Assembly (NCBI RefSeq): GCF_045037415.1
Contig: NZ_CP173438.1
Reading direction: 5' to 3' (one strand)
Length of the DNA: 64,000 nt
DNA from: Escherichia coli
Lineage (GTDB): Bacteria; Pseudomonadota; Gammaproteobacteria; Enterobacterales; Enterobacteriaceae
Of this stretch, positions 61,317-64,000 are shown piece by piece. The notes below the pieces were generated by a model. The model was not told where the DNA came from. It searched no databases and saw only the letters and a program-made list of their open reading frames with translations. Every line of letters starts with the position of its first letter. The first letter of the stretch is position 1. The position numbers and the translations under genes were made by a program.

Positions 61317-61772
61317 ATGCAAGAAGGGCAAAACCGTAAAACATCGTCCCTGAGTATTCTCGCCATCGCTGGGGTGGAACCATATCAGGAGAAGCCGGGC
61401 GAAGAGTATATGAATGAAGCCCAGCTGGCGCACTTCCGTCGTATTCTGGAAGCATGGCGTAATCAACTCAGGGATGAAGTCGATCGCACCGTTACACATA
61501 TGCAGGATGAAGCAGCCAACTTCCCGGACCCGGTAGACCGTGCAGCCCAGGAAGAAGAGTTCAGCCTCGAACTGCGTAACCGCGATCGCGAGCGTAAGCT
61601 GATCAAAAAGATCGAGAAGACGCTGAAAAAAGTGGAAGACGAAGATTTCGGCTACTGCGAATCCTGCGGTGTTGAAATTGGTATTCGCCGTCTGGAAGCG
61701 CGCCCGACAGCCGATCTATGCATCGACTGCAAGACGCTGGCTGAAATTCGCGAAAAACAGATGGCTGGCTAA
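61317..61772 (+). CDS. dksA: RNA polymerase-binding transcription factor DksA
   Basis: ORF track 61299..61772; ATG at 61317 after aaggaga SD gives [24 protein letters not shown]..., 151 aa, C4 zinc finger CESCGVEI...CIDC. Confidence 0.96.
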
Positions 61773-61808: not shown

Positions 61809-62735
61809 ATGCTCCCGCCTTATTTTTTGTTCAAAGAGATGACAGACACACACTATATTGGTCGCTTCGCCCCCTCTCCTTCCGGCGAGCTTCATTTTGG
61901 TTCTCTGATTGCTGCGCTTGGCAGCTATTTGCAGGCTCGCGCCCGGCAAGGTCGCTGGCTGGTACGCATTGAAGATATCGACCCGCCTCGTGAAGTTCCC
62001 GGTGCCGCAGAGACTATCCTGCGCCAGCTGGAACATTACGGCCTACACTGGGACGGCGACGTTCTCTGGCAATCGCAACGTCACCACGCCTATCGCGAAG
62101 CACTCGCCTGGTTACATGAGCAAGGACTAAGTTATTACTGCACCTGCACGCGTGCGCGTATTCAAAACATTGGCGGTATTTACGACGGTCATTGCCGGGA
62201 TTTGCATCATGGACCAGACAACGCCGCAGTACGTATCCGCCAGCAGCATCCAGTCACCCAGTTTACTGACCTGCTGCGAGGCATTATTCACGCCGACGAA
62301 AAACTGGCACGGGAAGATTTTATTATTCATCGCCGTGATGGTTTGTTTGCCTATAACCTGGCGGTGGTGGTGGATGATCACTTCCAGGGCGTGAGCGAAA
62401 TTGTCCGCGGGGCAGATTTGATCGAACCGACTGTGCGGCAAATCTCGCTGTACCAGCTTTTTGGCTGGAAAGTGCCAGATTACATCCATTTACCGCTGGC
62501 GCTTAATCCACAAGGCGCTAAACTTTCCAAGCAGAATCATGCGCCTGCGTTGCCGAAAGGCGATCCGCGCCCGGTGTTAATCGCGGCACTTCATTTTCTG
62601 GGTCAGCAGGTAGAAACACACTGGCAGGATTTCAGCGTCGAGCAAATCCTTCAGTCAGCCGTCAAAAACTGGCGGCTCACCGCAGTGCCTGAGTCGGCAA
62701 TTGTAAATTCAACATTCTCAAATGCGTCATGCTGA
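61809..62735 (+). CDS. gluQ: glutamyl-Q tRNA(Asp) synthetase
   Basis: 308-aa ORF; truncated GluRS-like catalytic domain; start could be the internal MTDT... (298 aa). Confidence 0.9.
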
Positions 62736-62794
62736 GCTATGATTAGCCGCTATTTTTTTGTCCTGAATGATGTTTGACACTACCGAGGTGTACT

Positions 62795-64000
62795 ATTTTT
62801 ACCCGAGTCGCTAATTTTTGCCGCAAGGTGCTAAGCCGCGAGGAAAGCGAGGCTGAACAGGCAGTCGCCCGTCCACAGGTGACGGTGATCCCGCGTGAGC
62901 AGCATGCTATTTCCCGCAAAGATATCAGTGAAAATGCCCTGAAGGTAATGTACAGGCTCAATAAAGCGGGATACGAAGCCTGGCTGGTTGGCGGCGGCGT
63001 GCGCGACCTGTTACTTGGCAAAAAGCCGAAAGATTTTGACGTAACCACTAACGCCACGCCTGAACAGGTACGTAAACTGTTCCGTAACTGCCGTCTGGTG
63101 GGTCGCCGTTTCCGTCTGGCTCATGTGATGTTTGGCCCGGAGATTATCGAAGTTGCGACCTTCCGTGGACATCACGAAGGTAACGTCAGCGACCGCACGA
63201 CCTCCCAACGCGGGCAAAACGGTATGTTGCTGCGCGACAACATTTTCGGCTCCATCGAAGAAGACGCCCAGCGCCGCGATTTCACTATCAACAGCCTGTA
63301 TTACAGCGTGGCAGATTTTACCGTCCGTGATTACGTTGGCGGCATGAAGGATCTGAAAGACGGCGTTATCCGTCTGATTGGTAACCCGGAAACGCGCTAC
63401 CGTGAAGATCCGGTACGTATGCTCCGCGCGGTTCGTTTTGCCGCCAAATTGGGCATGCGCATCAGCCCGGAAACCGCCGAGCCGATCCCACGCCTGGCAA
63501 CCTTACTGAACGATATCCCACCGGCACGTCTGTTTGAAGAATCGCTGAAACTGTTGCAAGCGGGCTACGGTTACGAAACCTATAAGCTGCTGTGTGAATA
63601 TCATCTGTTCCAGCCGCTGTTCCCGACCATTACCCGCTACTTCACGGAAAATGGCGACAGCCCGATGGAACGCATTATTGAGCAGGTACTGAAGAATACC
63701 GATACGCGTATCCATAACGATATGCGCGTGAACCCGGCGTTCCTGTTTGCCGCCATGTTCTGGTACCCATTGCTGGAGACGGCACAGAAAATTGCTCAGG
63801 AGAGCGGCCTGACCTATCACGACGCTTTCGCACTGGCGATGAACGACGTGCTGGACGAAGCCTGCCGTTCACTGGCGATCCCGAAACGTCTGACTACGCT
63901 AACTCGCGATATCTGGCAGTTGCAGTTGCGTATGTCCCGTCGTCAGGGTAAACGCGCATGGAAACTGCTGGAGCATCCTAAGTTCCGTGCGGCATACGAC
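62795..64000 (+). CDS. pcnB: poly(A) polymerase I, N-terminal 402 codons (3' end outside window); non-canonical AUU initiation codon
   Basis: Frame open from ATT at 62795 to the window end; translation (I/M)[21 protein letters not shown]...KFRAAYD matches PcnB; absent from ORF track because there is no in-window stop. Confidence 0.9.

Follow-up and report, generated by a model that had tools for sequence, protein, structure and literature searches.

The pcnB gene of Escherichia coli very probably starts at a known AUU codon within an initiation region nearly invariant in Enterobacteriaceae

The end of the 64,000-nucleotide stretch of Escherichia coli DNA analysed here (the window) raises the question of which codon starts pcnB, the gene for poly(A) polymerase I (PAP I). 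The original prediction placed the start at a non-canonical ATT, with a single canonical in-frame alternative upstream, a TTG, and took it for the documented AUU case that keeps poly(A) polymerase low. We re-read and recomputed the coordinates over 62400-64000, and those given for the ATT (62795), the TTG (62774), the TGA that precedes it in frame (62768-62770) and the 59-nt gap after the gluQ stop were all correct; direct reading also bore out that no canonical start other than the TTG occurs in the frame between this TGA and the ATT. The gene and its upstream neighbour are:

61809..62735, plus strand: gluQ (gluQRS), the upstream neighbour, whose stop lies 59 nt 5' of the ATT
62795..64000, plus strand: the pcnB coding sequence, of which 401 full codons lie in the window, 100% identical to the pcnB of E. 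coli SK1144

The gene is pcnB. Its ATT-started protein reaches 996.9 bits against the NCBIfam PcnB equivalog NF008634 (cut-off 702), with residues 1-464 aligned to profile positions 1-468, and 523 against TIGR01942 (cut-off 305.65); all models of CCA-adding enzymes stay under their cut-offs against PcnB, and in the window fragment PF01743 (PolyA_pol), PF12627 (PolyA_pol_RNAbd) and PF12626 (PolyA_pol_arg_C) all exceed their gathering scores. The frame is open from the ATT up to the window end, and the complete coding sequence, of 1398 nt, would end at 64192, 192 nt past that end. The species of the window is E. coli: genome comparison found the 701-nt stretch around the start site to be 100% identical to that of SK1144 and to be shared by 5424 of the 5426 complete E. 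coli genomes, and the window strain shares about 98% identity with K-12-type genomes over the 701 nt compared. The gene order in the SK1144 and MG1655 records is sfsA, dksA, gluQ, pcnB, folK; the enterobacterial order gluQ-pcnB-folK holds at the window locus, and folK (HPPK) is found 3' of pcnB in distant relatives too. The stop of gluQ, a TGA at 62733-62735, leaves an intergenic gap at 62736-62794. The start of gluQ itself differs between RefSeq records, with 308 aa from ATG 61809 in MG1655 and 298 aa from ATG 61839 in SK1144 (PGAP).

Around the start site, the window holds the following elements:

62768..62770, plus strand: in-frame TGA, the stop that bounds the pcnB frame on its 5' side (direct reading)
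62774..62776, plus strand: in-frame TTG within a TTGACA hexamer, the rival start of a 472-aa form
62785..62790, plus strand: Shine-Dalgarno sequence GAGGTG, invariant in 81/81 sequences and with the best anti-Shine-Dalgarno pairing among the candidate starts
62791..62794, plus strand: spacer of 4 nt between the Shine-Dalgarno sequence and the ATT, fixed in length and variable in sequence
62795..62797, plus strand: ATT (AUU), the probable pcnB initiation codon (direct reading; RefSeq CDS start)
62828..62830, plus strand: GTG at codon 12, the rival start of a 454-aa form (direct reading)
62948..62950, plus strand: ATG at codon 52, the start first proposed by Liu & Parkinson (414-aa form; direct reading)

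Further canonical in-frame codons 3' of the ATT are GTG 62879 and GTG 62885. The predicted pairing with the 3' end of the 16S rRNA is best for the ATT, at -9.8 kcal/mol, and the next strongest, at GTG 62885 (-8.2 kcal/mol), ends only one base 5' of its codon.

Outside RefSeq and UniProt, this start is still annotated inconsistently. Alignment with annotated pcnB genes places the CDS start on the ATT in three RefSeq records: SK1144 (PGAP; locus position 1696, which equals window position 62795), K-12 MG1655 (b0143, 157729..159126, likewise with a gap of 59 nt) and strain 2017-02-2CC. The K-12 gene agrees with that of the window in identity, gluQ-pcnB-folK neighbourhood, gap and start codon, and the MG1655 sequence is identical from 62768 to 62806, with no difference at the start site. 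The K-12 protein has nevertheless been deposited with four N-termini, giving 465 aa (from the ATT; UniProt PCNB_ECOLI), 472 aa (TTG), 454 aa (GTG codon 12) and 414 aa (ATG codon 52), of which the 465-, 472- and 454-aa forms are each found on 1000 or more contigs of public collections, the 454-aa form for example in O157:H7 annotations. The crystallised constructs (PDB 3AQK to 3AQN) begin at residue 28 or 29 and are uninformative on the start. The original prediction went astray in one point, namely in taking the ATT start as the reason why pcnB has no entry in the window's list of open reading frames: the gene is missing because it passes base 64000 and frames running off the end are not listed, and a complete copy is listed, as a 472-aa frame from the TTG (L001 1675..3093).

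To compare start sites we collected pcnB loci from 80 Enterobacteriaceae species, at 83-100% protein identity, which together with the window give 81 sequences; the region upstream is complete, and was scored, in 80 of them (79 loci and the window). An ATT codon alone is nothing beyond chance, and even its invariance (81/81) is weak evidence when taken by itself, since in Enterobacteriaceae the freeze extends over the entire initiation region. The ATT is a real feature because it stands fixed 4 nt after the GAGGTG, which is equally invariant, and because the RefSeq CDS boundary falls there. The spacer between the two occurs in 13 sequence variants, all of them 4 nt long. As expected of an AUU-initiated gene, the conserved peptide here has an in-frame ATT at its N-terminal edge and a Shine-Dalgarno sequence in working range. 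On the 3' side, no canonical in-frame start is universal among the 81 sequences, and the canonical candidates other than codon 12 are each present in at most 69 of them, a count reached by codon 29.

Conservation at the nucleotide level sets this region apart from the rest of the gene:

62784..62821, plus strand: nucleotide-frozen initiation region, from the Shine-Dalgarno sequence through codon 9, delimited by synonymous variability across Enterobacteriaceae

These 38 nt are nearly invariant in the family, synonymous sites and a rare CGA arginine codon included. Codons 1-9 have a synonymous variability of 0.008, where the mean over the gene is 0.286, and this is the lowest value of any 9-codon window in pcnB; a nine-codon run this low did not occur in 20000 shuffles. 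Among 5423 E. coli genomes, 5419 share an identical sequence over the 47 nt at 62784-62830, and the one variant examined changes only the spacer, from TACT to TATT. A direct repeat of 9 nt with one mismatch, ATTTTTACC at 62795-62803 and ATTTTTGCC at 62814-62822, 19 nt apart, lies with both copies inside the frozen region, the second copy out of frame. Farther into the gene, synonymous variation is low again at codons 39-50 (62909-62944), with 9-codon means of 0.07-0.10 against the gene mean of 0.29; this second stretch lies just 5' of the codon-52 ATG, itself not conserved across genera, and may have to do with the internal sigma-S promoter pS1 or with some other element.

Among the other starts, the one at ATG 62948 would add to the AUU product instead of replacing it: transcripts from pS1 would yield a minor, truncated PAP I beginning at codon 52. 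This promoter is active in vitro with the sigma-S holoenzyme, two western-blot bands react with anti-PAP I antibodies (PMC2939334), and the low synonymous variation of codons 39-50 adjoins the proposed start. We nonetheless consider such an isoform improbable, as codon 52 is a canonical start in only 23/81 sequences (the majority codon is CTC), the ATG has weak anti-Shine-Dalgarno pairing (-4.0 kcal/mol) at poor spacing, and the authors of PMC2939334 themselves call the truncated isoform unproven, with pS1 requiring special conditions.

A start at the upstream UUG 62774, as in older annotation, is very improbable. This codon owes its standing to being the sole canonical start 5' of the ATT after the in-frame stop, to its choice by the mechanical ORF finder and to the abundance of the 472-aa form (at least 1000 contigs), and it is named as the start in the introduction of PMC3561954. 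Across the family, however, a TTG occupies that position, seven codons 5' of the ATT, in only 28/80 scorable sequences (an ATG in 2/80), and 43/80 have no ATG, GTG or TTG at all between the upstream stop and the ATT, which excludes the TTG as the conserved start. Depending on the genus, the upstream stop lies from 4 to 58 sense codons 5' of the ATT, and conservation collapses 5' of the GAGGTG, where indels that are not multiples of three break the frame and coding-type conservation is lacking. The TTG also pairs with the anti-Shine-Dalgarno sequence at only -2.3 kcal/mol, and it is the ATT form that RefSeq, UniProt PCNB_ECOLI and the NCBIfam equivalog have adopted.

Whether the segment just 3' of the ATT is translated can be read from its substitutions. 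Among the 81 sequences codons 2-11 contain seven variable sites, of which six are third positions, all synonymous, and the seventh is a conservative K-to-R exchange; against a null of no reading frame this bias has P = 0.007 (binomial), and the peptide is therefore translated in this frame.

Relatives outside the family extend the picture. At 67% identity, L083 retains GAGGTG-N4-ATT-TTT with diverged later codons, and its gene caller chose an upstream TTG; the same motif recurs in two relatives at 62%, L084, a genome of 1.08 Mb whose record begins the gene at the ATT, and L089, for which the gene caller settled on a downstream GTG. Past the ATT-TTT, the freeze is looser in these relatives at 62-67% identity. 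L087 (55%) has GAGGA-N6-ATT, and its gene caller ran far upstream. In L088 (54%), an ATC is homologous to the ATT and a TAG stands six codons 5' of it; between the two (positions 641-700) no ATG, GTG or TTG occurs, which is why the gene caller began about 25 codons late, at a downstream ATG, and which suggests an AUC start in this lineage. The more distant L086 (48%) and L085 (45%) have ordinary starts, a GTG and an ATG respectively, and were called there. Judging from these alignments, an AUU or AUC start marks a wide range of relatives, to as low as about 54% identity, and is not universal, in agreement with a statement, attributed to Binns & Masters in the accessible text of PMC3561954, that many Proteobacteria may have homologues with an AUU start.

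The same comparisons leave hardly any room for the remaining proposal, that the segment from the Shine-Dalgarno sequence as far as about 62827 serves as a regulatory leader and goes untranslated, with translation starting at GTG 62828 (454 aa): the freeze of codons 1-9 could indeed also come from a non-coding element, codon 12 is GTG in 79/81 sequences and the 454-aa form is common in databases, but this GTG has no Shine-Dalgarno sequence (-0.1 kcal/mol), codon 12 is GTC in the other two loci (L080, L081), codons 2-11 vary in the synonymous manner described above, the N-terminal peptide before codon 12 is still recognisable in the relatives at 54-67% identity while the DNA diverges, and in more distant relatives, whose start codons are ordinary, a similar basic helix is kept at the N-terminus. 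Comparative and anti-Shine-Dalgarno evidence thus goes against both the upstream TTG and the downstream GTG, the two starts that the original prediction had named as alternatives.

Taken together, the RefSeq coding sequences, the NCBIfam alignment from residue 1, the literature that cites the AUU start and the comparative analysis make it very likely that pcnB translation starts at AUU 62795, a codon positioned by its Shine-Dalgarno sequence, predicted to initiate inefficiently and to keep the enzyme scarce. The original prediction of an AUU start is upheld by the same RefSeq starts, NCBIfam alignment and 81/81 ATT codons, and its remark that this start is not novel holds as well, for it has been documented since 2002.

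Indeed, Binns & Masters 2002 (Mol Microbiol 44:1287), known here through papers that cite it, is credited with showing that AUU initiation limits pcnB translation in the accessible text of PMC2939334, PMC3561954 and bioRxiv 10.1101/063800, and likewise in that of PMC5499595, PMC4447247, PMC9410913 and PMC9764084; to this extent the literature confirms a documented AUU case that keeps poly(A) polymerase low. In PMC2939334 the non-canonical AUU is given as the true start, and the promoter proposed in 1989 is noted to lie 3' of it. PMC3561954 names UUG as the start codon in its introduction and AUU in its discussion, the former echoing the older view in which the TTG was the start. PAP I is present at about 30-50 molecules per cell, and excess PAP I is toxic (PMC3561954). 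The pcnB ribosome binding site has been called poor (PMC3561954, PMC9764084), in contrast to the invariant, well-placed GAGGUG with its -9.8 kcal/mol seen here. Our search of the literature for retapamulin start-site profiling and pcnB returned only a Staphylococcus aureus paper and nothing on the E. coli site.

infC, which encodes IF3, and pcnB are the only two confirmed cases of AUU starts in E. coli (bioRxiv 10.1101/063800, PMC5499595, PMC4447247, PMC9410913), and in both the AUU limits expression of the product (PMC4447247). The GAGGUG at 62785-62790, 4 nt 5' of the AUU, would position the 30S subunit, and the initiator tRNA would read the AUU with a third-base mismatch, which would lead to inefficient initiation and hence to a scarce enzyme. 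By analogy with infC, IF3 may reject the AUU of pcnB too, and pcnB output would then be expected to be low and IF3-sensitive, as that of infC is; the texts examined make no mention of IF3 dependence of pcnB. The two genes differ in that the AUU of infC is the sensor of an autoregulatory loop, in which IF3 rejects its own start codon (PMC5499595, PMC9410913), whereas pcnB is not its own regulator and its sensitivity to IF3 is argued from the likeness to infC. Another parallel is ebpA of Enterococcus faecalis (PMC4447247), where a rare ATT also attenuates expression and the gene was also mis-annotated from another codon. It encodes, however, a pilus tip protein of an unrelated organism, and was mis-annotated from a downstream ATG, compared with an upstream TTG and a downstream GTG and ATG for pcnB.

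Upstream of the start site, one further element was found:

62715..62743, plus strand: sigma-70-type promoter-like sequence TTCTCA-N17-TATGAT, overlapping the gluQ stop

It is the sole promoter-like match in 62300-63100 and is conserved in most genera and in L083. The block at 62715-62749, in which it is followed by a GC-rich GCCGC, is better conserved than the GluQ C-terminus that it encodes; it is not recognisable in L016 (S. enterica subsp. diarizonae), the sole Salmonella locus displayed. The sequence at 62715-62743 is a candidate for, and probably is, the published major pcnB promoter pB, an identity that we infer, as the text of PMC2939334 gives no coordinates for pB and pS1, whose positions appear in its figures only. 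The TTGACA at 62774-62779, present in some genera only, is a perfect -35 hexamer whose first half is the rival TTG; it is unlikely to belong to a sigma-70 promoter because the nearest -10-like sequences, TACTAT and TATTTT, are only 11-14 nt off.

What holds the initiation region fixed is a separate matter from where translation starts. A generic effect of 5' ends can be rejected, since gluQ and folK, at the same loci, have 5' ends free of such a freeze (0.33 against 0.36-0.38). RNA structure is rejected as well, as no stable structure is predicted: 62750-62860 folds worse than shuffled sequences (z = +1.41), with 190/200 shuffles folding at least as well. Rfam (E <= 1) gave no match over 62300-63300, and no covariation test is possible on the frozen block because it is invariant. 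A literature search for regulation of the pcnB mRNA by sRNAs or Hfq found nothing relevant. The simplest reading is that how much a weak start codon yields depends strongly on its context, which is hence held fixed. It is conceivable, though on balance doubtful, that the block binds an unrecognised regulator (sRNA or protein), or that it is an RNA context tuned to set the extent of AUU initiation; if true, there would be more to this site than a weak start codon. At the same Enterobacteriaceae loci dksA shows a 5' freeze longer than that of pcnB: in its codons 1-21 (61317-61379) synonymous variation is at most 0.06 at all but one codon and 0.00 at most of them, and codons 21-60 average 0.15, which suggests that the 5' coding region of dksA, too, is under constraint at the nucleotide level.

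For E. coli, pcnB is the textbook second AUU case after infC, and RefSeq and UniProt annotate it accordingly. ORF finders and many deposited annotations give three other N-termini (472, 454 and 414 aa), and a scan that trusts mechanical ORF calls therefore misplaces the start of this gene. The frozen synonymous sites offer a modest lead on how the expression of a toxic enzyme may be kept low and tightly set.
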